A stretch of DNA of 64,000 nucleotides, taken from the NCBI RefSeq assembly GCF_001659705.1, contig NZ_CP015971.1, forward strand, positions 2,171,029 to 2,235,028, read 5' to 3'. The DNA comes from Arachidicoccus sp. BS20. GTDB taxonomy: Bacteria; Bacteroidota; Bacteroidia; Chitinophagales; Chitinophagaceae. Of the stretch, positions 1,577-29,356 are shown piece by piece. The stretch's first letter is position 1, and the number at the start of each line of letters is the position of its first letter. A program made the translations under genes and the position numbers. The notes beneath the pieces were generated by a model that saw only the letters and a program-made list of their open reading frames with translations, was not told where the DNA came from and did not search any database.

Positions 1577-1662
1577 GATTTAATTTTCAAGAATAAAATT
1601 ATTACTAAATTTTTTGGCAGCATTCATACACAGGTTTTATATTTGTAAAAAGAGAATTAATT

Positions 1663-2541
1663 ATGGAAATTAGAACAGATTTATTTCTTGGCGACAGCAA
1701 AAAGATATTGAAACAACTTCCCGATAATTCTGTTGATTTAATCGTTACTTCTCCGCCTTATGCAGATCAACGCAAAGCAACTTATGGTGGTATTTCACAC
1801 AATAAATATGTTGAGTGGTTTTTACCAATAACAGAAGAGCTATTACGTGTTTTAAAACCAACAGGAACATTTATTTTAAATATAAAAGAAAAAGTTGTTG
1901 ATGGAGAACGTAGCACTTATGTGATGGAATTGATTATTGAAATGCGTAAACAAGGCTGGTTATGGACTGAGGAATTTATATGGCATAAGAAAAATTCTTA
2001 TCCGGGAAAATGGCCTAATCGTTTTCGTGACGCATGGGAAAGATTACTTCAATTCAACAAAGACAAAAAATTCAATATGTATCAAGAAGAAGTAATGGTT
2101 CCAATGGGCGATTGGGCAAAATCAAGATTAAAGAATTTAAGCGATACAGATAAAGTAAGAGATAATTCAAAAGTAGGAAGTGGCTTTGGTAAGAACATTT
2201 CAAATTGGCTAACAAGAGATAAAGCATATCCAACAAATGTTTTGCATTTAGCGACAGAATGTAACAACAAGAATCACAGTGCAGCATTTCCTGAAGAACT
2301 TCCTGAGTGGTTTATTAAATTATTTACAATGGAAAATGACGTGGTGCTTGACCCATTTATGGGCTCAGGAACGACGATTCATGTTGCTAACAGAATGAAA
2401 CGTAATTCAATTGGAATTGATATTGTGCCCGAATATTACAAAATGGTAAAAGAACAAGTAGAGCCTATTGAATTATATTTATTAGAGTCAAAAGTAAAAT
2501 ATGAAACCCCTAAATCTAAAGGACGTTACGCAGTACGTTGA
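1663..2541 (+). CDS. DNA methyltransferase, beta class (motif IV before motif I), probably N4-cytosine or N6-adenine
   Basis: SPPY motif (DLIVTSPPY) lies upstream of the AdoMet-binding motif DPFMGSGTT. The gene sits in a segment noticeably more AT-rich than its neighbours. Confidence 0.8.
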   Translation: MEIRTDLFLGDSKKILKQLPDNSVDLIVTSPPYADQRKATYGGISHNKYVEWFLPITEELLRVLKPTGTFILNIKEKVVDGERSTYVMELIIEMRKQGWLWTEEFIWHKKNSYPGKWPNRFRDAWERLLQFNKDKKFNMYQEEVMVPMGDWAKSRLKNLSDTDKVRDNSKVGSGFGKNISNWLTRDKAYPTNVLHLATECNNKNHSAAFPEELPEWFIKLFTMENDVVLDPFMGSGTTIHVANRMKRNSIGIDIVPEYYKMVKEQVEPIELYLLESKVKYETPKSKGRYAVR

Positions 2542-3238
2542 AGACAATATTGGAACTTTTCATCAAAAAAGAATTGCAGGTTTGAATGGTTTGAGATTAA
2601 AGAAAGTTCTTGCCAAAAAAAATCCTTATTTATTCAAAGCAAAATATATTTTAACTGCTCAAGATATTATTAAAAACTTGACAGACGCTTTTATTTCATC
2701 GCAAGAAGAAACAATCTTTGGAGATTGGTTAGAGGGACTTGCAATATTTATTAACAGTAAAGTTTATAATGGTCGTAAATCGGGCATTCAAGGAATTGAT
2801 TTGGAATTTGATAAAGACAACACCCGTTATATTATTACAATAAAATCTGGTCCAAATTGGGGCAATAGTTCTCAAATTGGAAAAATGAAAGCAGATTTCA
2901 AAACTGCACAAAGAACACTTCGTACAAGCAACTCAAAATTGAACATTGTTGCAGTCAATGGTTGTTGTTATGGCAGAGATAACAGACCCGATAAAGGCGA
3001 TTATTTCAAATATTGCGGACAACATTTTTGGGAATTTATCTCCGGGGACAAAGAATTATATCTAAAAATTATCGAGCCATTAGGACATAAAGCCAAAGAA
3101 AGAAATGATGAGTTCATTCAATCTTATTCTCAAATGATAAATGTATTTACAAAAGAATTTGCGGATACATTTTGTAATGAAAACGGTTCTATAAATTGGA
3201 ATAAACTTGTTTACTTTAATTCTTCAACAACTCGATAA
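2501..3238 (+). CDS. Putative type II restriction endonuclease, cognate to the upstream methyltransferase; family not identified
   Basis: Overlaps the methyltransferase 3' end by 41 nt on the same strand and is similarly AT-rich. No other recognisable domain; the call rests mainly on context. Confidence 0.5.
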   Translation: MKPLNLKDVTQYVEDNIGTFHQKRIAGLNGLRLKKVLAKKNPYLFKAKYILTAQDIIKNLTDAFISSQEETIFGDWLEGLAIFINSKVYNGRKSGIQGIDLEFDKDNTRYIITIKSGPNWGNSSQIGKMKADFKTAQRTLRTSNSKLNIVAVNGCCYGRDNRPDKGDYFKYCGQHFWEFISGDKELYLKIIEPLGHKAKERNDEFIQSYSQMINVFTKEFADTFCNENGSINWNKLVYFNSSTTR

Positions 3239-3281
3239 GATTAAATATTTACTAAGAGTAAAATTGTTCATAAAATCATTC

Positions 3282-4502
3282 ATGCAATACTGGAAAAAAC
3301 TTACACACAAGCAACAAGACGAACGAATATCCAAAGCGTTGGAACAAAATTTTGCCTTCGGCGAAAACGGAACGTTGGGAATACCCGCATCCAAGCTCGA
3401 CAGCAAAGTGTTCTACGACGATGCGCCTTTTTTAAAAGACGCGCCATTGCTGAGGACTTATGTGCAAAACCCGAATCATATTGGTTGCCACACGTTAGGC
3501 GAATCCGAGCCATTTTTCGCCGGAACGCAAGACATCGAGCGCGAAGTAATCGAACTGCTGAGTGTTGATATGATGCACGCGCAACCACATTCCTGCGACG
3601 GATATATTGCGGGCGGCGGCACGGAAGCCAACTTGCAAGCTGTATGGATTTATAGAAATTACTTTCAAAAAGAAATTGGCGCACCGGCTGAAAGCATTGC
3701 CCTGCTTGCATCCGAAGACACACATTATTCTGTGTCCAAAGCGTCAAACATTTTCGGGATTGAATTTTTTCAGGTAAAAGTTGATTTTAATTCACGAAAA
3801 ATTTTACAGGATAATCTGGAAGCAATCATTGAAAATGCGATTGAAAAAGGCAAAAAATATTTCATCATCATTGCGAATATGGCAACAACGATGTTTGGCA
3901 GCGTGGACGATATTTCCGTGTACGAAGAAGCAATGAAAAAATATGCTGTTCCATTTAAACTCCATGTGGACGGGGCTTTCGGCGGATTTATATATCCTCT
4001 CAGCGAGCCGGATAATTATTTGAATTTTGCAAATCCTGTTGTTTCTTCCATCACTTTGGATGCACACAAAATGTTGCAGGCTCCTTACGGCACAGGCATT
4101 TTTTTGGTAAGAAAAGGATTAATACAACACGTTTATACCGAAGAAGCTCAATATGTAAACGGCATGGACATAACACTAAGCGGAAGCCGTTCCGGTGCAA
4201 ACGCAATCGCCGTTTGGATGATTTTACAAACATATGGCTACCACGGTTGGCTGGAAAAAATCAATACGCTTTTGTTCCGTACTGATTGGTGTTGCAAGGC
4301 ATTGGATGAAAAGAAAATTCGTTATTACCGTCATCCAAAGATGAATATTATTACCATTCGTGCAGAAGATATTTCACGGGAAATTGCAGAGAAATATTAT
4401 TTAGTTCCCGATACACACAACGGAAATATGCGTTGGTATAAAATTGTTGTAATGGACCATGTAGATATTGACAGATTGCAACAGTTTGTGGAAGAATTGT
4501 AA
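3282..4502 (+). CDS. PLP-dependent group II amino-acid decarboxylase family protein
   Basis: PLP-lysine motif SITLDAHKM and Gly-rich GGGTEANL. Start set at the ATG at 3282 (MQYWKK) inside the longer ORF. Confidence 0.75.
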   Translation: MQYWKKLTHKQQDERISKALEQNFAFGENGTLGIPASKLDSKVFYDDAPFLKDAPLLRTYVQNPNHIGCHTLGESEPFFAGTQDIEREVIELLSVDMMHAQPHSCDGYIAGGGTEANLQAVWIYRNYFQKEIGAPAESIALLASEDTHYSVSKASNIFGIEFFQVKVDFNSRKILQDNLEAIIENAIEKGKKYFIIIANMATTMFGSVDDISVYEEAMKKYAVPFKLHVDGAFGGFIYPLSEPDNYLNFANPVVSSITLDAHKMLQAPYGTGIFLVRKGLIQHVYTEEAQYVNGMDITLSGSRSGANAIAVWMILQTYGYHGWLEKINTLLFRTDWCCKALDEKKIRYYRHPKMNIITIRAEDISREIAEKYYLVPDTHNGNMRWYKIVVMDHVDIDRLQQFVEEL

Positions 4503-5197: not shown

Positions 5198-6712
5198 ATG
5201 GATTCAACAAACACAAACCAAAAATCTCATCCGCGCGGATTGTATTTATTGTTCTTTACCGAAACTTGGGAACGCTTCAGCTATTATGGAATGCGTGCCA
5301 TTTTTATGACGTTCATGATTCACATTCTCATGCTGAACGATGCAACGGCTTCCAACATTTACGGCAGTTACACAGGTTTGGTTTATCTTACCCCACTGCT
5401 TGGCGGTTATTTAAGCGACCGGTATTTAGGCAACCGAAAAAGCGTTATTATCGGAAGTTTAATAATGGCAATCGGGCAGTTTTTTCTCTTTTTGAGTGCA
5501 TCCACAAGCGGCGCAAATGCTATTACAATGATGTGGGCGGGTTTAACTTTCCTCATTAGCGGCAACGGTTTTTTCAAACCAAACATTGCCACAATGGTTG
5601 GACAATTGTACTCGAACGGCGACCGGAGAGTGGATATTGCTTTTACTATTTTTTATATGGGCGTAAATCTCGGTGCAATGATTTCGCCGATTATTTGCGG
5701 TACGCTTGCCGAAAAAATTAATTATCGTTGGGGCTTTCTTGCCGCAAGCATCGGAATGCTGATTGGTATGTTCGCATTCATTTTGTATAAAAGAAAAATG
5801 CTTGTGAGCCACGAAGGCAACGATGTAGGAATGCCTGTAAAACCACTGGACATAAAATCGGTTATTTATATCATAGGTTCTATCGGGTTGATATTTTTCT
5901 TTCTCAATTTTCAACAAATATTCCATTCCGACCTTGACATTATCAATTATGTGATTTACGGTTCACTCATCATTATTCCGACCATTATTTTAACCAATAA
6001 AACCCTGACTTCCGATGAACGAAGCCGTATCTGGGTTTTAGTTATTCTGGTATTCTTCGTGATTTTCTTCTGGAGTGCTTATGAGCAGGCAGGCGCTTCT
6101 TTGACCATATTTGCCGACAAACAAACCGATAGAAATATTCTTGGTTTTGAGGTGCCGGTTGCATGGTTTCAATCGGTAAATGCAGTGTGTATTTTGTTAT
6201 TTGCCCCTGTACTATCCGCTATCTGGATAAAATTGGGCAAAAGAAACCTTGACCCGGCATCTCCACGCAAAATGGCTTTCGGGCTGCTGTTTCTTTCACT
6301 TGGGTTTGTAGTTATCGCCATCGGTGTTCACGGTGTGGACAGCACAGTAAGAATAAGTATGTGGTGGTTAATTGCTTTATATTTTTTACATACAATCGGA
6401 GAATTGTGTTTATCTCCAATCGGTTTATCAATGGCTTCAAAGCTCGCGCCTATGCGGTTTTCGTCCTTGATAATGGCGACCTGGTATTTGGGAAATGCAG
6501 CGGCAAATAAATTCGCAGGAACATTAAGTTCGCTCATTCCGCCGAGCAGCGACGATATTGCAAAAGGCGCAAAAATTCCGCACATACTTGGATTTCAGGT
6601 TACTAATTTGTTTGATTTTTTCATGATATTTATTGTGATGACAGGTGTTGCTTCATTGATACTTTTCCTCGTAAGCGGACGATTAATTAAAATGATGCGT
6701 GGTATAAGATAA
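5198..6712 (+). CDS. Proton-dependent oligopeptide transporter (POT/PTR2 family, DtpT-like)
   Basis: N-terminal POT signature FTETWERFSYYGMRAIF and multiple TM segments. Start taken at MDSTNTN (5198). Confidence 0.85.
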   Translation: MDSTNTNQKSHPRGLYLLFFTETWERFSYYGMRAIFMTFMIHILMLNDATASNIYGSYTGLVYLTPLLGGYLSDRYLGNRKSVIIGSLIMAIGQFFLFLSASTSGANAITMMWAGLTFLISGNGFFKPNIATMVGQLYSNGDRRVDIAFTIFYMGVNLGAMISPIICGTLAEKINYRWGFLAASIGMLIGMFAFILYKRKMLVSHEGNDVGMPVKPLDIKSVIYIIGSIGLIFFFLNFQQIFHSDLDIINYVIYGSLIIIPTIILTNKTLTSDERSRIWVLVILVFFVIFFWSAYEQAGASLTIFADKQTDRNILGFEVPVAWFQSVNAVCILLFAPVLSAIWIKLGKRNLDPASPRKMAFGLLFLSLGFVVIAIGVHGVDSTVRISMWWLIALYFLHTIGELCLSPIGLSMASKLAPMRFSSLIMATWYLGNAAANKFAGTLSSLIPPSSDDIAKGAKIPHILGFQVTNLFDFFMIFIVMTGVASLILFLVSGRLIKMMRGIR

Positions 6713-9347: not shown

Positions 9348-10691
9348 TTACTTCATCTCAAAGCTTTCCATAAATTTAGTAGTAAAGTTTCCCTTACGGA
9401 AATCTTCATTTTGCATCAGTTGCAAATGGAAAGGAATGGTGGTTTTAACGCCGTCGCCTTCAATTACATATTCACTCAACGCACGATACATGGTGTCAAT
9501 TGCTTCTTCGCGCGTGCGCGCAATAGCAATCAGCTTTCCAATCATAGAATCGTAATAAGGCGGAATGGTGTAACCTGCGTAAACATGGCTGTCCACACGC
9601 ACGCCGTGTCCGCCGGGTGTATTCAACGTTCTTATTTTTCCCGGCGAAGGACGGAAATCGTTGTATGGGTCTTCAGCATTAATGCGGCATTCGATAGCGT
9701 GCATGACAGGTGTATAATTTTCGCCTGAAATTTTTTCGCCTGCGGCAATTTTTATCTGTTCTTTAATTAAATCGAAATTAATCACTTCTTCCGTAACGCA
9801 ATGTTCCACCTGAATACGTGTATTCATTTCCATAAAGTAGAAATTGCGGTGCTTATCTACCAGAAACTCAATTGTACCCACGCCTTCGTAGCGAATGCAC
9901 GCCGCAGCTTTTATAGCAGCTTCGCCCATTTTCTTGCGGAGTTCGGGTGTCATAAACGGCGATGGTGATTCTTCCACCAACTTCTGATGACGGCGTTGAA
10001 TGGAACAGTCGCGCTCGCTCATGTGGCAAACCGTTCCGTATTGGTCGCCGGCAACTTGAATTTCTATGTGGCGCGGTTCTTCCACAAATTTTTCCATGTA
10101 GATGCCGTCGTTCTTGAACGCTGCGGCTGCTTCGGCTTTTGCGGTATTGTAATTTTTTTCCAAATCTTCTTCTTTCCACACCACGCGCATACCTTTTCCG
10201 CCGCCACCGGCTGTGGCTTTCAAAATAATTGGATAACCGATTTCTTTTGCCGATTCTTTTGCGTGTTCCAGACTTTGCAACAATCCTTCAACACCGGGAA
10301 CTACCGGCACGCCGGCTTTTATCATCGTGTCTTTGGCGGTTACTTTGTCGCCCATGAGGCTAATCATTTCCGCAGTCGGTCCTATAAATTTGATGCCGTG
10401 GTCTTCGCAAATCTGCGCAAACTTTGCATTTTCTGCCAAGAAGCCATAACCGGGATGAATGGCATCGCAATTGGTAATTTCTGCAGCAGCCATAATGTGC
10501 GGAATGTTAAGATAAGAATCCACGCTTTGCGGCTTGCCGATACAAACGGCTTCGTCGGCAAAGCGCACGTGCAAACTTTCTTTATCGGCGGTGGAATAAA
10601 TGGCTACCGTTTCAATGCCCATTTCACGACAAGTACGAATGATGCGCAATGCAATTTCGCCGCGATTGGCAATTAATATTTTTTTAAACAT
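9348..10691 (-). CDS. accC: Acetyl-CoA carboxylase biotin carboxylase subunit
   Basis: N-terminus [22 protein letters not shown]-grasp motifs and length typical of AccC. Confidence 0.9.
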
Positions 10692-10744
10692 TTTTATCAA
10701 TATGCTAATGTGCCAATTTGCAAATATGCAAATGTGTATGGCAG

Positions 10745-11137: not shown

Positions 11138-11210
11138 ACAGTGATTATTGTACTATGAAACAGAAGAGCAATTTGCACATTTGCATATTAGCTAATTTGC
11201 AAATTTCAAA

Positions 11211-11693
11211 TTAATTCGGCTCTACCAGAAACAAAGGCTGGTCGTATTCTACCGGCGAAGCGTCGTCCACCAACACTTTTACAATTGTTCCGCTTACTTC
11301 GCTTTCTATTTCGTTGAAGAGTTTCATTGCTTCGATGATGCACACGGTTTGTCCCGCTTTTACTTCTTGTCCCACGTCTGCCAGCAAAGGCTTGTCGGGC
11401 GAAGCACGACGATAAAATGTACCAATCATTGGGCTTTTTATCGTTATAAAATTATCGTCTGATTTTGCCGGAGCAGAAGCGGTTGTTGGAGTTGCAGCCG
11501 GCGTTGATGGCAAACTTACTGTTGGCGCTGCCTGCGGCAATTGTTGCGGAAGCGGCTGCGGATTCACAAAAGTCTGAACGTACTCTTTCTTTTGTTTAAT
11601 GGTAATTTTGAAATCCTTTTCTTCGATAGACAATTCGCCGATGTTGCTCTTGTTAATTGTCTTTATCAATTCCTGAATTTGCTTATAATCCAT
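11211..11693 (-). CDS. accB: Biotin carboxyl carrier protein of acetyl-CoA carboxylase
   Basis: C-terminal biotinyl domain with EAMKLFNEIESE and a Pro/Ala-rich linker. Confidence 0.85.
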   Translation of the reverse strand: MDYKQIQELIKTINKSNIGELSIEEKDFKITIKQKKEYVQTFVNPQPLPQQLPQAAPTVSLPSTPAATPTTASAPAKSDDNFITIKSPMIGTFYRRASPDKPLLADVGQEVKAGQTVCIIEAMKLFNEIESEVSGTIVKVLVDDASPVEYDQPLFLVEPN

Positions 11694-11746
11694 TTTGTTG
11701 AATTAATTATTAAATAATTAAAAATTTGAATAGTGGTGTAAGATAA

Positions 11747-24730: not shown

Positions 24731-25957
24731 TTATTCATTTCCTTTCAAAGAAAAATCTTTTACTGCCGCCTTTCGTGCTGGAATCCACGAAGCCAAAACA
24801 GCAACGATAAATATAGTCGCCGTTACCATCAGAAAGTCTGCAATACGCATAGTTACCGGATAATAATCTACAACAAACGAACCGCCTTCGAGTTTTATGA
24901 GATGATATTTTTGCTGCGCGTAACAAATTAAAAATGCAATCAACATTCCTGCAATGCCGCCGATTCCAGCTAATAAAAAGCCTTCATTCAAAAATATTTT
25001 TTGTATAAAACCATTGTGCGCGCCCAACGCCTTCAGCACAGCAATATCTTTTCGTTTTTCCAAAATCAACATCGTTAATGCGCCCACCATATTGAACGCT
25101 GCAATCACTAAAATGATGGAAAGAATAATGTAGATAATCCATTTTTCCATTTGCATCACGCTGAACAAACTTTGATTCTGTTGAAAGCGTGTCTGCACTT
25201 TATAATGCTGACCAAATATTGATGCCACCTGCTTTTGCGCACCTGAAACATTCTCTTCCGAATTTATTTTTATATCAATCGCCGTATAACTATTTTCGGG
25301 AATATCTGCCATATATCTTACAAAACCGATATTGGTAAAAGCATATTTATTATCAAAATCTTCCTGTATTCTAAAAATACCTGCTTCGTGAATATCGAAC
25401 GAATAAGTGGCATTTTGAAGATTGGAAAAATCATTAGCATTTCTGTTTGGGAAAAAAACCGTCAAAGGGTCTGTGGACAAAGGGTCTGCGCCAATGGCGT
25501 TGGCAATGCCGCCGCCAAGAACAACGGATGGAGAATCTTTAGTTCCTAAACTATATTCGCCGTTATCGATAATATTTTTCTTTATGGAAACAACTTCATA
25601 GTAATTGCTATCCACGCCCTTGAGATAAACAATGGACTGGTAATCGCCATTTACCACCAGCGCTTTTTCTTCAACAGTCAAACTGAAATTTTTTACAGAC
25701 TTTATTTGATGCAACTGTTTCAGCTGAGACGCCGTTGGTTGAATATACTTCCCTTGCGTTGCAGACACGCGCAAATCAGAATAAAAATCGCCGTACATGG
25801 ATTTAACCAATCCTTCAAAACCATTGAAAACACTAAGCACGAGAATGAGCGCCGCCGAACCAACCGCAATGGCAACAATGCTTATCCACGAAATAATGTT
25901 GATGACATTCGTGGATTTTTTTGCTTTAAAATATCGCCATGCGAAGAGGAAGTTCAT
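24731..25957 (-). CDS. Lipoprotein-release ABC transporter permease (LolC/LolE, FtsX-like)
   Basis: N-terminal TM, large periplasmic domain and a C-terminal FtsX 3-TM bundle. Confidence 0.75.
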   Translation of the reverse strand: MNFLFAWRYFKAKKSTNVINIISWISIVAIAVGSAALILVLSVFNGFEGLVKSMYGDFYSDLRVSATQGKYIQPTASQLKQLHQIKSVKNFSLTVEEKALVVNGDYQSIVYLKGVDSNYYEVVSIKKNIIDNGEYSLGTKDSPSVVLGGGIANAIGADPLSTDPLTVFFPNRNANDFSNLQNATYSFDIHEAGIFRIQEDFDNKYAFTNIGFVRYMADIPENSYTAIDIKINSEENVSGAQKQVASIFGQHYKVQTRFQQNQSLFSVMQMEKWIIYIILSIILVIAAFNMVGALTMLILEKRKDIAVLKALGAHNGFIQKIFLNEGFLLAGIGGIAGMLIAFLICYAQQKYHLIKLEGGSFVVDYYPVTMRIADFLMVTATIFIVAVLASWIPARKAAVKDFSLKGNE

Positions 25958-25969
25958 GCAGTAATTAAG

Positions 25970-25995
25970 AATTAGTAATTAAAAATTAATAATTG
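25970..25995. repeat. Left arm of a perfect 26-bp inverted repeat (AATTAGTAATTAAAAATTAATAATTG) flanking the four-helix-bundle gene
   Basis: Exact reverse-complement match to 26348-26373. Confidence 0.9.
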
Positions 25996-25999
25996 TGGG

Positions 26000-26350
26000 T
26001 TATCCTTTTGAAGAGTTAATAATTGAGGTAAGGATTTTTATAATTTCTTCACAATCATTGATAAAAGAATCTGCAATTTTTTCTTCTATAAATTTAGTTT
26101 CTTTCAGAATTCTCAACCAATATCGGGTTTCACGCGCTTCTCTGTATGCTATTTCGAGTTTGTGTATAAAATCTTTTCTTGAAGAACCGCCAACAGCTTC
26201 TTCAACATTAGCTCCGACAGAAGTTCCGCTTTTTAATAATTGAACACATAATTCTCTTTCAACTTTGTTTTTTCGCAAATGCAAGAAGAGCTTGGTTATT
26301 CTCAATGCAAATAGAAAACTTTTATCCAATATAATATTATCGTCCTTCAA
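26000..26350 (-). CDS. Four-helix-bundle protein (TIGR02436, 23S rRNA intervening-sequence protein family), second copy
   Basis: 116 aa with GTSVGANVEEA core and ETRYWL motif. Paralogous to 10745-11137. Confidence 0.75.
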   Translation of the reverse strand: MKDDNIILDKSFLFALRITKLFLHLRKNKVERELCVQLLKSGTSVGANVEEAVGGSSRKDFIHKLEIAYREARETRYWLRILKETKFIEEKIADSFINDCEEIIKILTSIINSSKG

Positions 26351-26373
26351 TTATTAATTTTTAATTACTAATT
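26348..26373. repeat. Right arm of the perfect 26-bp inverted repeat (CAATTATTAATTTTTAATTACTAATT)
   Basis: Exact reverse complement of 25970-25995. Confidence 0.9.
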
Positions 26374-26379
26374 ATTAAT

Positions 26380-26742
26380 TCACTTATTCGACTCCTCATT
26401 AATTTTTTTAAACAATTCTTCCATATGAAAAACGTGTTCCAGCGTATCATCGGCATAATAATGAATCACGGGAATGCGGCGCAACTGGTTTTTCAATTTA
26501 TGCGACAATTCTTTTTTTATTTCCCAGGCTTTTTGTTCAATTGATTTTAATGCCGCAGCATTGTCTTGCACCTGAAAGAAACTCAGGTAAATACGCACTT
26601 CCAGCAAATCGGGCGTAACCTGCACATCGCTGATGGAAACCATGCCGCCGCCAATCATGTTCAAACCAAGATGACGAAAGATTTGGTTAATCTCTTCTTT
26701 AATCACGTTGGCAACCTGCCGCTGTCTTTTTCCCTGTTCCAT
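26380..26742 (-). CDS. rbfA: Ribosome-binding factor A
   Basis: RQVANVIKEEINQI motif and KH-like fold, 120 aa. Confidence 0.8.
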   Translation of the reverse strand: MEQGKRQRQVANVIKEEINQIFRHLGLNMIGGGMVSISDVQVTPDLLEVRIYLSFFQVQDNAAALKSIEQKAWEIKKELSHKLKNQLRRIPVIHYYADDTLEHVFHMEELFKKINEESNK

Positions 26743-26804
26743 AATCTTTGCGTTTTGTTGGCTGTAAAATTAGTTACTTTTGCCGTTCTATTCTAATAAG
26801 AATT

Positions 26805-28613
26805 ATGAAGAAATTTCAACGCATATTCACGTATCTCGGGCATTACAAATCCAAGCTGTTCAGCTATACATTATTTACGGTTTTAGGAACATTGTTCGGC
26901 ATTTTATCAATCGGAATGTTGTCGCCGTTTCTTACCTTGATTATCGGCGATGAAAAAAATTCTTCTGCTAATTTGTTGCAGTCAAAATCAAGCGGAAAAT
27001 TTATCCTTAATTTTCTGAACAGCGAAGTACAGCAACACGGCAAACTCGCTGCTATTGCTGCGGTTTGTATAATTATTATTGTATCCACCTTGCTGAAAAA
27101 TATTTTTATTTATTTATCGGCTGTTATTTCTGCGCCTGTCCGAAGTTCCATTATCAAAAGGCTGCGCGATGAAATGTATGTAAAAGCTCTGCAACTCCCC
27201 ATCGGATTTTTTACCGAGCAGAAAAAAGGCGATGTAATGTCGCGTATGACAAATGATATTAATGAAGTGGACAGTTCAATTGTAAGCACGCTGGAAGGCT
27301 TAATCAAAGATCCGTTCACAATAGTCGGTTATTTGATTGCGATGATTTTGATTAGCCCGGCATTGTCCATTGGTTTATTAATTCTTTTGCCATTGACAGG
27401 TTTTGTTATCGGTCGTGTAAGTCGTTTATTAAAGAAACAATCCAAAGCCATGAGCGAGCGACAAAGTGTTGCGCTCTCTATTTTGGACGAAACGCTTACG
27501 GGAATAAGAGTTGTAAAGGCTTTTCTGGCGGAAAAAATGATGCACAAAAAATTTGACGCCGTGAATGAAGATATGTTTGTGCTGCGCAATAAAATGTCGT
27601 ATCGCCGCAATCTGGCTTCGCCTTTGACGGAAGTATTGGGCGTAACAGTGCTTGCGGCAATTTTGTATTTCGGCGGCATGTTGGTGGTAAAATATCAATT
27701 GATGAAAGGCGGCGATTTGCTGGCATATATCGGCATGTTTGCTTTCATTATTAATCCTGCGAAAACTTTGTCCACATCATTTTTCAACATTCAGCGCGGA
27801 AGCTCTGCGCTCACGCGAATTGAAGATTTTCTGGCTACGCCCGAAGTGATTGAAGACGGAGGAACGAATGAATTAAGTTTTGAAAGAGAAATACAGTTTA
27901 AAAATGTATTTTTTAGTTATCCAGACGGGACTGCCGTTTTAAAGAATATTAACCTTACTATTCCTAAAGGCAAAACCGTGGCGCTTGTAGGCAGCAGCGG
28001 CGCAGGAAAAAGTACGATTGCCGATTTGGTTCCGCGCTTTCACGACGTGAGTTCGGGCGAGTTGCTGATTGATGGAATCAACGTTAAAAATTATTCGCTC
28101 AAATCTTTGCGCGAGCATATCAGCATTGTAACACAGGAACCGATTTTGTTTAATGATTCTATTGCAAGCAATATTGCTTTGGGAAAAAATGATGCAAGCG
28201 AACAGCAAATTGAAGACGCGGCAAAGGTTGCCAATGCGTTTAATTTTATCCAACAGAAAGAAGAAAAATTTGACACCAACATTGGCGACAGAGGCAATAA
28301 ATTAAGCGGCGGCGAAAAACAACGTGTAACCATTGCGCGCGCCGTTTTAAAAAATCCACCGATACTGATTTTGGATGAAGCCACTTCTTCGCTCGACACG
28401 GAAAGTGAAAGATTGGTACAGGATGCGATTGATAAAATGATGGAAAACCGCACTTCATTAGTAATTGCCCACAGACTCTCAACTGTGCGAAATGCTGATG
28501 AAATCATTGTTTTGGATAAAGGCGAAATTGCCGAACGCGGCTCCCACGATGAATTGCTGAAAATAGAAAATGGTATTTACAGTAGATTGGTTAGAATGCA
28601 GGAAGTGAAATAG
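26805..28613 (+). CDS. ABC transporter, fused permease/ATPase (MsbA-like lipid/multidrug exporter)
   Basis: Six N-terminal TM segments, Walker A GSSGAGKST, signature LSGGEKQR and Walker B ILILDEATS. Confidence 0.85.
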   Translation: MKKFQRIFTYLGHYKSKLFSYTLFTVLGTLFGILSIGMLSPFLTLIIGDEKNSSANLLQSKSSGKFILNFLNSEVQQHGKLAAIAAVCIIIIVSTLLKNIFIYLSAVISAPVRSSIIKRLRDEMYVKALQLPIGFFTEQKKGDVMSRMTNDINEVDSSIVSTLEGLIKDPFTIVGYLIAMILISPALSIGLLILLPLTGFVIGRVSRLLKKQSKAMSERQSVALSILDETLTGIRVVKAFLAEKMMHKKFDAVNEDMFVLRNKMSYRRNLASPLTEVLGVTVLAAILYFGGMLVVKYQLMKGGDLLAYIGMFAFIINPAKTLSTSFFNIQRGSSALTRIEDFLATPEVIEDGGTNELSFEREIQFKNVFFSYPDGTAVLKNINLTIPKGKTVALVGSSGAGKSTIADLVPRFHDVSSGELLIDGINVKNYSLKSLREHISIVTQEPILFNDSIASNIALGKNDASEQQIEDAAKVANAFNFIQQKEEKFDTNIGDRGNKLSGGEKQRVTIARAVLKNPPILILDEATSSLDTESERLVQDAIDKMMENRTSLVIAHRLSTVRNADEIIVLDKGEIAERGSHDELLKIENGIYSRLVRMQEVK

Positions 28614-28836: not shown

Positions 28837-29061
28837 ATGGAAAACATTCATCCGCAATATACCTTCGACAACGCAGGAAATCCTGTGGGTGTTTTTTTGC
28901 CGATAGACGATTGGAATGCGATTACGGAAGAGTTGCATTTGGACTTGCCTGAATGGCAAAAGAGGTTGCTTGATGAACGCGTGGAAGCGTACAGAAAAAA
29001 TCCAGAAGCGATGATTGATTGGGATAGCTTTGTGGCAGAAGAACTAAGTGATGATGAGTGA
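28837..29061 (+). CDS. Putative addiction-module antitoxin (TIGR02574-like)
   Basis: 74 aa, acidic C-terminus. Its 3' end overlaps the downstream RelE/ParE-like gene. Confidence 0.6.
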   Translation: MENIHPQYTFDNAGNPVGVFLPIDDWNAITEELHLDLPEWQKRLLDERVEAYRKNPEAMIDWDSFVAEELSDDE

Positions 29062-29356
29062 GTATAAACTGATTGTTGCTCCTGAAGTTCGCTATGATAT
29101 ACGCGAAGCCAAGCTTTGGTATAAAGATAAAAGCCCGACGCTGCCAAGACGTTTTGCAACAGAAGTGAGAACTACAATTGAGCAAGTAAAATTGCGACCG
29201 ACAACGCACGCAATCCGTTACAACAACATACGCATTGCCAACTTACCGATATTTCCTTACGCCATTCATTATACTGTTGAAGAAAATATTGTTGTTGTAC
29301 TCGCCGTTTTTCATGCTGCGTTAAATCCTGAAAAATGGTTGAACAGAAATAAATAA
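29048..29356 (+). CDS. RelE/ParE-family type II toxin
   Basis: About 100 aa with RelE/ParE-like secondary-structure order (LVVLAVFHAALNPE C-terminal beta region). Overlaps the antitoxin by 14 nt. Confidence 0.65.
   Translation: MMMSEYKLIVAPEVRYDIREAKLWYKDKSPTLPRRFATEVRTTIEQVKLRPTTHAIRYNNIRIANLPIFPYAIHYTVEENIVVVLAVFHAALNPEKWLNRNK

Follow-up and report, generated by a model that had tools for sequence, protein, structure and literature searches.

What is a small gene, framed by a long inverted repeat, doing in the spacer between rbfA and lolC/E? The question is raised by a 64,000-nucleotide (nt) stretch of contig NZ_CP015971.1 (positions 2,171,029 to 2,235,028) from Arachidicoccus sp. BS20 (Arachidicoccus ginsenosidimutans), which we refer to as the window. 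Here, an open reading frame (ORF) of 116 amino acids (aa), which belongs to the four-helix-bundle family of proteins encoded in intervening sequences of 23S rRNA, is inserted with its two repeat arms between rbfA and the gene for a LolC/E-type permease. Our analysis indicates that arms and gene together are very probably an inserted, self-contained, mobile cassette with the architecture of such an intervening sequence. The features of the locus, in the order in which they would be transcribed, are the following.

26380..26742, minus strand: rbfA, the host gene upstream of the cassette (PF02033, E value 2.9e-22; TIGR00082)
26380-26382, minus strand: TGA stop codon of rbfA
26348..26380, minus strand: 5' arm (transcript orientation), five tandem heptamers
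26000..26350, minus strand: four-helix-bundle gene (23S rRNA intervening-sequence protein family), 116 aa (PF05635, TIGR02436)
25963..25995, minus strand: 3' arm, inverse heptamer array
24731..25957, minus strand: LolC/E-type lipoprotein-release permease (FtsX type), the host gene downstream of the cassette

The spacer between rbfA and lolC/E measures 422 bp and is wholly occupied by the arms and the 116-aa gene. The encoded protein matches PF05635 (23S_rRNA_IVP; E value 5.6e-26, 91.3 bits against a cut-off of 33.8) and TIGR02436 (four helix bundle protein; E value 1.6e-30, 105.5 bits against a cut-off of 24), and its nearest solved structure is PDB 2RLD, which has five chains (E value 2.9e-26). 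The ORF starts at a TTG codon, and homologues have ATG, TTG, or GTG at that position. Downstream, the permease matches PF02687 and PF12704, and it matches TIGR02212 with an E value of 2.5e-67, which is under that model's cut-off. The cassette contains 27.5% G+C, compared to 39.3% for the window.

A preliminary description of this locus, drawn from the letters alone, had reported a perfect 26-bp inverted repeat that encloses only the four-helix-bundle ORF and lies 12 bp and 6 bp from the neighboring genes. We reproduced these observations. The 26-mer AATTAGTAATTAAAAATTAATAATTG is present exactly at 25970-25995 on the plus strand and at 26348-26373 on the minus strand, it does not occur elsewhere in the window even when three mismatches are allowed, and 0 of 100 dinucleotide shuffles gave a match. 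A single ORF lies between the arms, and the distances to the neighboring genes are correct for the perfect core. The inverted repeat can be extended to 25963-25995 and 26348-26380, however, and these longer arms reach closer to the flanking genes; they comprise 33 nt with 32 matches (97% complementary), of which 26 are contiguous and perfect, and the distance between them is 352 nt. What the preliminary description overlooked is that the arms are tandem heptamer arrays. In transcript sense, the 5' arm reads AATTAAT, AATTAGT, AATTAAA, AATTAAT, and AATTG, and the 3' arm reads CAATT, ATTAATT, TTTAATT, ACTAATT, and CTTAATT, so that each arm consists of five tandem heptamers, (AATTANN)5 at the 5' side and the inverse (NNTAATT)5 at the 3' side. 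The 5' arm includes the TTG start of the cassette ORF and shares one base, the last, with the rbfA stop codon. Between the 3' arm and the lolC/E ATG lie 5 nt. Each of the two arms contains stop codons in all three frames.

To learn whether the cassette is native to the operon, we examined the same site in 80 Chitinophagaceae loci, one genome per species, which were scanned with the LolC/E protein. In all 80, rbfA immediately precedes lolC/E, and the two genes are separated by a median of 45 nt (interquartile range [IQR], 33 to 78), compared with 422 nt in the window. No PF05635 homologue was found in the 1.35 Mb of these loci by phmmer, iterated hidden Markov model search, or tblastn. Thus, the empty lolC/E-rbfA junctions for which the preliminary description had proposed to look are found in 80 of 80 relatives. 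The closest of these loci come from two Arachidicoccus assemblies (LolC/E identities of 77% and 71%), and in these nearest relatives, L001 and L002, the cassette is absent; the spacer of L002 is plain and about 44 nt long. The few long rbfA-lolC/E spacers among the relatives contain other insertions: a 67-aa ORF with a ParE-family toxin in L001 (9486-9998), a RES toxin and Xre antitoxin pair on the opposite strand in L050 (8739-9727), and a SusC/SusD-like pair of about 6 kb in L063 (3926-10000). The L001 insert is bracketed by the 10-bp direct repeat TAAAATAAGT at 9489-9498 and 9989-9998, which looks like a target duplication. Because different inserts have entered the same spacer, it is a recurrent landing place, or insertion hotspot. 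Collectively, these comparisons identify the window cassette as an insertion into the rbfA-lolC/E operon, and its absence from the relatives sampled dates its arrival to after the split of A. ginsenosidimutans from them.

The nearest homologues of the 116-aa protein point to where the same unit resides in other genomes. These proteins, which are 62 to 83% identical to it, are all encoded between a GyrB/ParE-type topoisomerase B subunit and a DUF1835/DUF3658 gene, upstream of parC, a site seen in 21 metagenomic loci and in the contigs that encode P0002 and P0003. Alignment of the window cassette with seven parE-site cassettes revealed similarity from the first heptamer of the 5' arm to the last heptamer of the 3' arm; the arms are near-identical to those of the window (in L084, one arm is the same over 32 nt), and no relationship is seen between the host flanks. 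These alignments show, at the level of sequence, that the gene moves from one intercistronic spacer to another together with its arms. With empty sites in relatives and the same unit at another site, the proposal of the preliminary description that this is a self-contained, inserted cassette of intervening-sequence architecture in an mRNA operon is borne out. The arms match at 32 of 33 positions in the window copy, a recent insertion, and at 80 to 90% in long-resident copies, as would be the case for arms that start out perfect and deteriorate after insertion.

The protein itself appears to be maintained by selection. Between the window protein and 10 parE-site homologues, the proportion of nonsynonymous differences (pN) is 0.135 to 0.23 and that of synonymous differences (pS) is 0.65 to 0.84, which is saturated; for the 6 of 10 homologues in which the synonymous rate (dS) could be estimated, the ratio of nonsynonymous to synonymous rates (dN/dS) is 0.07 to 0.13. 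These values show a codon-level signature of purifying selection on the 116-aa protein, by which measure the four-helix-bundle protein is functional. The arm sequence is conserved far better than the synonymous sites of the gene.

To determine how general this design is, we assembled 80 metagenomic loci with a PF05635 gene, 74 of which have enough flank for arm analysis. The inverted-arm design is common to most of these relatives. Lag-7 autocorrelation is 0.45 in the upstream flank and 0.38 in the downstream flank, versus about 0.25 inside the gene and 400 to 500 nt away, and within 200 nt of the gene, the 80 loci contain 79 copies of the array (AATTANN)3AATT. Unit counts span 2 to 10 per arm, and the commonest number of consecutive AATTA-core units is five, both upstream (29/72 loci) and downstream (26/72); five is still the commonest count in nonredundant contexts (17/50 and 12/50), and nearly all cassettes of the parE lineage have 5 + 5 units. 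The unit type varies by lineage, including AATTAGG, AATTACG, AATTATG, AATTAAT, and others. The hosts range from 31 to 70% G+C, and the cassettes are consistently richer in A-T than the host, with A-T-rich arms even in hosts of 66 to 70% G+C. In L113, for example, the host has 66.5% G+C and the arms have 10 to 15%, and these arms are perfect at 32 of 32 positions; perfect complementarity over 26 to 33 nt is seen in several elements (the window, L113, and L156). Comparison across these loci thus shows an array-armed cassette design that is family-wide.

Several variants of this anatomy were observed. Locus L106 contains a gene-less hairpin (5795-5900) in which a loop of about 30 nt separates five AATTANN units from five inverse ones. 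A full cassette with the same unit types belongs to this operon as well; the hairpin occupies the intercistronic spacer that comes next, beyond a PrgI-like gene, and could be a miniature derivative. Two gene-less hairpins with the same units are present on a phage contig, L280 (1274-1387 and 5295-5409). In L074, a solo array of the 5' type (3742-3800) directly follows the stop codon of an ORF and is itself followed by a classic G+C-rich terminator hairpin; this array may be the remnant of a lost cassette. In L116 and L126, the upstream array is made of repeated AATTCGT, which is the usual downstream form, so that the flanks look direct rather than inverted, and no reading considered here accounts for this arrangement.

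We also considered the heptamer array as a flag for the gene and rejected it. At least 120 viral contigs contain (AATTANN)4AATT (L161 to L280), and none has a PF05635 ORF; most of these matches are pure microsatellites in giant-virus bins, with a few gene-less hairpins among them. Therefore, the array alone is not diagnostic of a cassette. On phage contig L170 (3580-5660), arrays lie in the spacers after a large ORF (1582-3585) and between small ORFs. The large ORF looks like a terminase large subunit, and arrays of this kind may bound other cargo.

Placement of the cassettes relative to host genes is stereotyped. The upstream neighbor is co-directional with the cassette in 67 of 72 loci and the downstream neighbor in 54 of 67, and both are in 46 of 60. 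The 5' arm starts at a median of 3 nt past the upstream stop codon and often overlaps it, and in such cases the array itself therefore supplies the stop codon. At the other side, the gap between the 3' arm and the downstream start has a median of 5 nt (IQR, 3 to 7), and 29 of 36 loci have values from -3 to +10 nt. Arms with a stop in every frame are enriched relative to shuffled sequences (57% versus 38% for upstream arms and 49% versus 21% for downstream arms). All-frame stops as the reason for a period of 7 were nevertheless rejected: they are enriched but not universal, and CGAATTA arrays have none in the sense direction. The neighboring genes belong to more than 45 unrelated gene families, including sufB-sufC, MoxR-DUF58, accB-accC, two FtsX permeases, and UvrD-EVE. 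A published survey has also described PF05635 genes in cas operons; one of them separates cmr3 from cmr2, leaving spacers of 86 and 6 nt, and the survey interpreted such occurrences as a functional association (PMC3936711).

The window contains a second cassette, between accB and accC, with the following features.

11211-11693: accB, flanking gene (Pfam)
11171..11205, minus strand: 5' arm, with units of about 8 nt resembling TGCAAATN; starts 5 nt after the accB stop codon
10745..11137, minus strand: second four-helix-bundle gene, 130 aa (tblastn match; PF05635, E value 5e-23)
10699..10736, minus strand: 3' arm; ends about 7 nt before the probable accC ATG at 10691
9348-10700: accC, flanking gene (Pfam)

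The 130-aa protein is 41% identical to the 116-aa protein. The accB-gene-accC arrangement recurs in several Chitinophagaceae (L286 to L292) with different outer synteny, and judged by this distribution, the accB-accC cassette lineage is an old resident. Its arms have diverged among these genomes yet pair at -33 to -46 kcal/mol, with at least one clear compensatory unit change (GCAGAT/ATCTGC versus GCAAAT/ATTTGC), and the octamer lineage to which they belong has about 3 to 6 units per arm. PADLOC models gave no match of a defense family to either four-helix-bundle protein of the window. Two minor observations concern this region. In L291 and L292 (2894-3055), a segment of about 50 nt that includes the 3' arm is present in two copies about 60 nt apart, downstream of the accB-accC cassette. 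In the window, just upstream of accB (11691-11735), the A-T-rich sequence GAATTAATTATTAAATAATTAAAAATTTG loosely resembles degenerate AATTA-type units and may be a remnant or due to chance.

Among known systems, the cassette most closely recalls the ORF-carrying intervening sequences of 23S rRNA, which were described in the early 1990s and whose defining location is helix 25 or helix 45. To our knowledge, neither the origin of these intervening sequences nor the role of their four-helix-bundle protein is settled. One of them is that of Coxiella burnetii, in which the 23S intervening sequence contains an ORF of the same protein family and a 28-bp terminal stem that is cut by RNase III, both in vitro and as mapped by rapid amplification of cDNA ends (PMC4990558). 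Upstream of this ORF lie tandem heptameric repeats, three to four copies of GACAGAT, whose number varies between strains, and the ORF itself is reported to be in decay and probably not translated; RNase III cleavage has been shown experimentally for the 23S elements of both Coxiella and Leptospira (PMC4990558). Like the elements with an "S23p" ORF in Leptospira and Coxiella, the window cassette has a PF05635 ORF and a stem of about 28 to 33 bp that encloses only this ORF, and, like the Coxiella element, it has tandem heptamers in the arm upstream of the ORF, a trait described for Coxiella rather than a formal criterion, here with five AATTANN units in each arm. It also appears to ride on a host transcript, as 23S intervening sequences do. 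It differs from the Coxiella element in lying in the intercistronic spacer of an mRNA operon rather than in helix 45 of 23S rRNA, in the heptamer (AATTANN instead of GACAGAT), and in an ORF under strong purifying selection. Thus, the enclosing stem and heptamers of 23S intervening sequences are present, and the 23S location is not: Rfam and family scans found no rRNA in the window, and there are no tRNAs. Rfam detected no family in the cassette region beyond noise (E values up to 10) and none at the gathering score across the window.

Resemblances to other small elements are more partial. Correia elements, elements of the enterobacterial repetitive intergenic consensus (ERIC) type, and similar families are small inverted-repeat elements that occupy operon spacers and form hairpins in mRNA; Correia hairpins have been reported as RNase III substrates that alter mRNA stability. 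Elements of these families have no ORF, many near-identical copies per genome, and defined target duplications. Gene-less hairpin derivatives of the present element exist (L106 and L280), which is a likeness; unlike Correia and ERIC-type elements, however, it encodes a protein, has arrays of 7- to 8-nt units, seems to have a low copy number, and shows no target duplication. Repetitive extragenic palindromic (REP) and REPIN elements, with their REP-associated tyrosine transposase (RAYT, of the Y1 type), likewise form palindromic intercistronic hairpins in operons and combine a protein-coding "master" with noncoding hairpins, but the cassette protein is a four-helix bundle and not an HUH/Y1 enzyme. 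Integron cassettes share with the present element a promoter-less, single-gene, co-directional unit that is read from an upstream host promoter and imperfect inverted repeats; they have one 3' attC, an integrase, and attI, whereas the present element has symmetrical arrays on both sides, no integrase, and many unrelated housekeeping operons as hosts. Finally, Avd of the diversity-generating retroelements belongs to the PF05635 superfamily and is a pentameric, basic, nucleic-acid-binding four-helix bundle. Unlike in a diversity-generating retroelement, no reverse transcriptase, template, or variable repeat lies beside the gene, whose neighbors are rbfA and lolC/E. Beyond these two, the next genes encode an ABC transporter and an HAD-like ORF, and among the immediate and next neighbors, no reverse-transcriptase-like ORF adjoins the 116-aa gene. 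We found no description of operon-embedded, heptamer-armed cassettes in the full-text literature, a search for which subscription journals and annotation notes lie mostly outside coverage, so that earlier remarks are possible.

How might such a cassette be tolerated within an operon? We consider it rather probable that it is an inserted, promoter-less, selfish element of the same kind as the ORF-containing 23S rRNA intervening sequences and that its arms act as an RNA helix. Promoter-like matches show no excess (11, compared to 8.5 ± 2.6 in shuffles, in a scan that does not model Bacteroidota promoters) and there is no terminator-like site at the arms; the cassette would be transcribed as part of the rbfA-lolC/E operon. 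In the transcript, the arms would pair into an A-U-rich helix of about 33 bp, looping the cassette out. Folding, which the preliminary description had also proposed, is consistent with this: the duplex of the arms alone has a predicted energy of -27.8 kcal/mol, and in the folded 461-nt transcript, the 26 core pairs have a pair probability of about 1.0 and the helix is retained in the centroid structure. Since the rbfA stop and the lolC/E start would sit side by side at the base of this helix, the cassette would be looped out and the cistrons brought about as close as they are natively, so that the host genes might behave much as with the native spacer (median, 45 nt). Where the upstream gene is read into the array, heptamer stops in every frame would end its translation cleanly. 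By analogy with the Coxiella and Leptospira elements, the helix is also a likely RNase III substrate, and cleavage would release the cassette mRNA. Such processing is plausible here because the Coxiella intervening sequence that is cut by RNase III also has heptameric repeats; by homology, we regard the mechanism of RNA helix and RNase III cleavage as evenly poised. The preliminary description had suggested that the cassette could uncouple rbfA from lolC/E. The opposite is probable, given that stop and start would lie at one helix base and that this geometry is family-wide; the modeled stem suggests that coupling is preserved rather than broken. Its fallback explanation, a conserved terminator-like hairpin, fails, and an intrinsic terminator or attenuator can be ruled out, as the stem is A-U-rich, the loop is 352 nt long, there is no T-run, and a scan detected no terminator-like site at the arms.

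Several results weigh against an RNA helix, or against mobility, and bring other explanations into play. The window helix is almost pure A-U, with only 2 G-C pairs; its loop measures 352 nt, and ribosomes that translate rbfA would open the outer part of the helix. Across the family, core helices have a median length of 32 nt and about 86% Watson-Crick pairs, and sense-strand G:U mismatches (75) are about as numerous as A:C mismatches (71), indicating no RNA-specific bias. In a register-fixed covariation analysis of 16 cassettes (the parE lineage and the window, aligned without reference to pairing), 88.6% of positions were paired compared to 88.2% in shuffles, with a covariation score of 0.068 versus 0.066. 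Variable positions do match better between an element's own two arms (0.69 to 0.72) than between permuted partners (0.43 to 0.45, each at its best register; p of about 1e-9 to 1e-13), but taken with the null covariation, this indicates only a shared unit type per element and not compensatory base-pair evolution. It is the AATTA core of the inverted arrays that is conserved; the variable positions often mismatch, and pairing there is not kept. An asymmetry between sense and antisense duplex energies was tried as an RNA signature (50/72 loci, p = 2e-4) and rejected, as it falls to 33 versus 20 outside one clade. As for mobility, no transposase, integrase, or clear target-site duplication was found with the cassette, and comparison with the empty sites in L001 and L002 revealed no clear duplication at the window junctions; movement would also be rare, because most lineages are long resident at one site (accB-accC or parE). 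Since neither wobble nor covariation carries an RNA-specific signal, the arms may serve first of all as tandem sites to which a sequence-specific protein binds, with pairing secondary. We think this rather unlikely. Most simply, the binder would be the ring-shaped pentamer that the cassette itself encodes, each subunit taking one AATTA core; the target could be RNA or single- or double-stranded DNA, and the role could be autoregulation, nuclease protection, or end recognition for mobility. A 5-nt core that is kept beside two variable positions that are not is what spaced repeat sites look like, and mismatches at those positions without a G:U bias, like arms conserved far beyond the gene's synonymous sites, fit as well. 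Five is both the commonest unit count and the number of chains in 2RLD, and a homopentameric toroid is cited for a Xanthomonas member (PMC4990558). Units also differ by protein lineage (heptamer AATTANN, octamer TGCAAATN, and Coxiella GACAGAT), and a gene-less hairpin of the same unit type stands beside the full cassette in L106. Co-inheritance of protein and arms is, however, expected from descent alone, the octamer lineage has about 3 to 6 units rather than five, counts across the family run from 2 to 10, and neither the inverted orientation nor perfect complementarity over 26 to 33 nt (window, L113, and L156) is needed for binding.

Alternatively, the arms could be the terminal inverted repeats of a small nonautonomous transposon that is mobilized in trans by a transposase from another locus, with the gene as cargo and the RNA hairpin as incidental. 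This we consider improbable. It would account for inverted terminal arrays that move together with the unit between them, for gene-less hairpins (L106 5795-5900 and L280) that resemble miniature inverted-repeat transposable elements, for the solo arm in L074, and for the near-perfect arms of the recent window copy (32/33) against those of long-resident copies (80 to 90%); moreover, the same spacer has taken other selfish inserts, namely, the ParE toxin-antitoxin insert of L001 with its 10-bp direct repeat and the RES-Xre pair of L050. The window element does have inverted arms, but the protein that it encodes is not a transposase, no transposase is associated with the cassettes, whose neighbors are host operon genes, and the window junctions show no clear target-site duplication. 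Strong purifying selection and the presence of the gene in nearly every element argue that the gene is integral rather than cargo, and strict co-orientation with a 5-nt spacing to the downstream start is atypical of transposons, although selection could yield both. That the gene is simply an ordinary, conserved member of the rbfA-lolC/E operon, with a repeat that is a terminator or attenuator hairpin or a chance product of an A-T-rich spacer, is extremely improbable. Three co-directional, tightly spaced genes and an arm sequence unique within the window would suit such a gene, but the comparative data contradict it: the gene is absent at this site in 80 of 80 relatives, and homologous cassettes occupy more than 45 other contexts. 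A 352-nt loop with neither T-run nor terminator-like match does not describe a terminator. Nor does chance explain the repeat, as a 26-mer pair never arises in shuffles, (AATTANN)3AATT occurs only 4 times in 1.42 Mb (the window and 80 related loci), with 2 of the 4 being the window arms, and the cassette stands at 27.5% G+C in a window of 39.3%.

This locus and the loci compared with it indicate that the type of element first known from 23S rRNA commonly resides in mRNA operons, including those of essential genes (rbfA-lolC/E, accB-accC, parE, and sufB-sufC), and also in cas operons. Its anatomy is stereotyped, with about five inverted 7- to 8-nt units abutting a host stop codon and ending about 5 nt from a host start. 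This design explains the apparent "association" of PF05635 genes with unrelated systems such as CRISPR-Cas, which bears on guilt-by-association annotation. A bolder possibility, which we regard as doubtful, is that the cassettes are widespread, undescribed two-component mobile or regulatory elements, in which a pentameric ring would read about five units of its own flanking arrays at one AAUUA core per subunit, much as the TRAP ring reads spaced triplets; the element would home to operon stop/start junctions and rRNA helices, where the paired arms loop it out and host expression is preserved; if this were true, 23S rRNA intervening sequences would merely be the special case that was noticed first. 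The ideas that can be tested are RNase III cleavage of the mRNAs, recognition of the repeats by a ring protein, and preservation of translational coupling by the stem. For these, the window cassette is tractable: the insertion is clean and recent, sister genomes provide the empty site, and the species is named and has a sequenced genome of 3.49 Mb.

Other selfish residents were noted near the sites described here. In L281 (2935-3760) and L282 (4240-4823), a 140-aa Y1_Tnp gene (RAYT- or IS200-like) with its own REP-like palindromes shares the parE-parC region with the cassette; it does not belong to the cassette and has no relation to the heptamer arms. In the window, a toxin-antitoxin pair at 28837-29356, composed of an overlapping 74-aa Unstab_antitox/RelB-like ORF and a 102-aa ParE toxin, lies just downstream of an MsbA-like ABC transporter gene (26748-28613).

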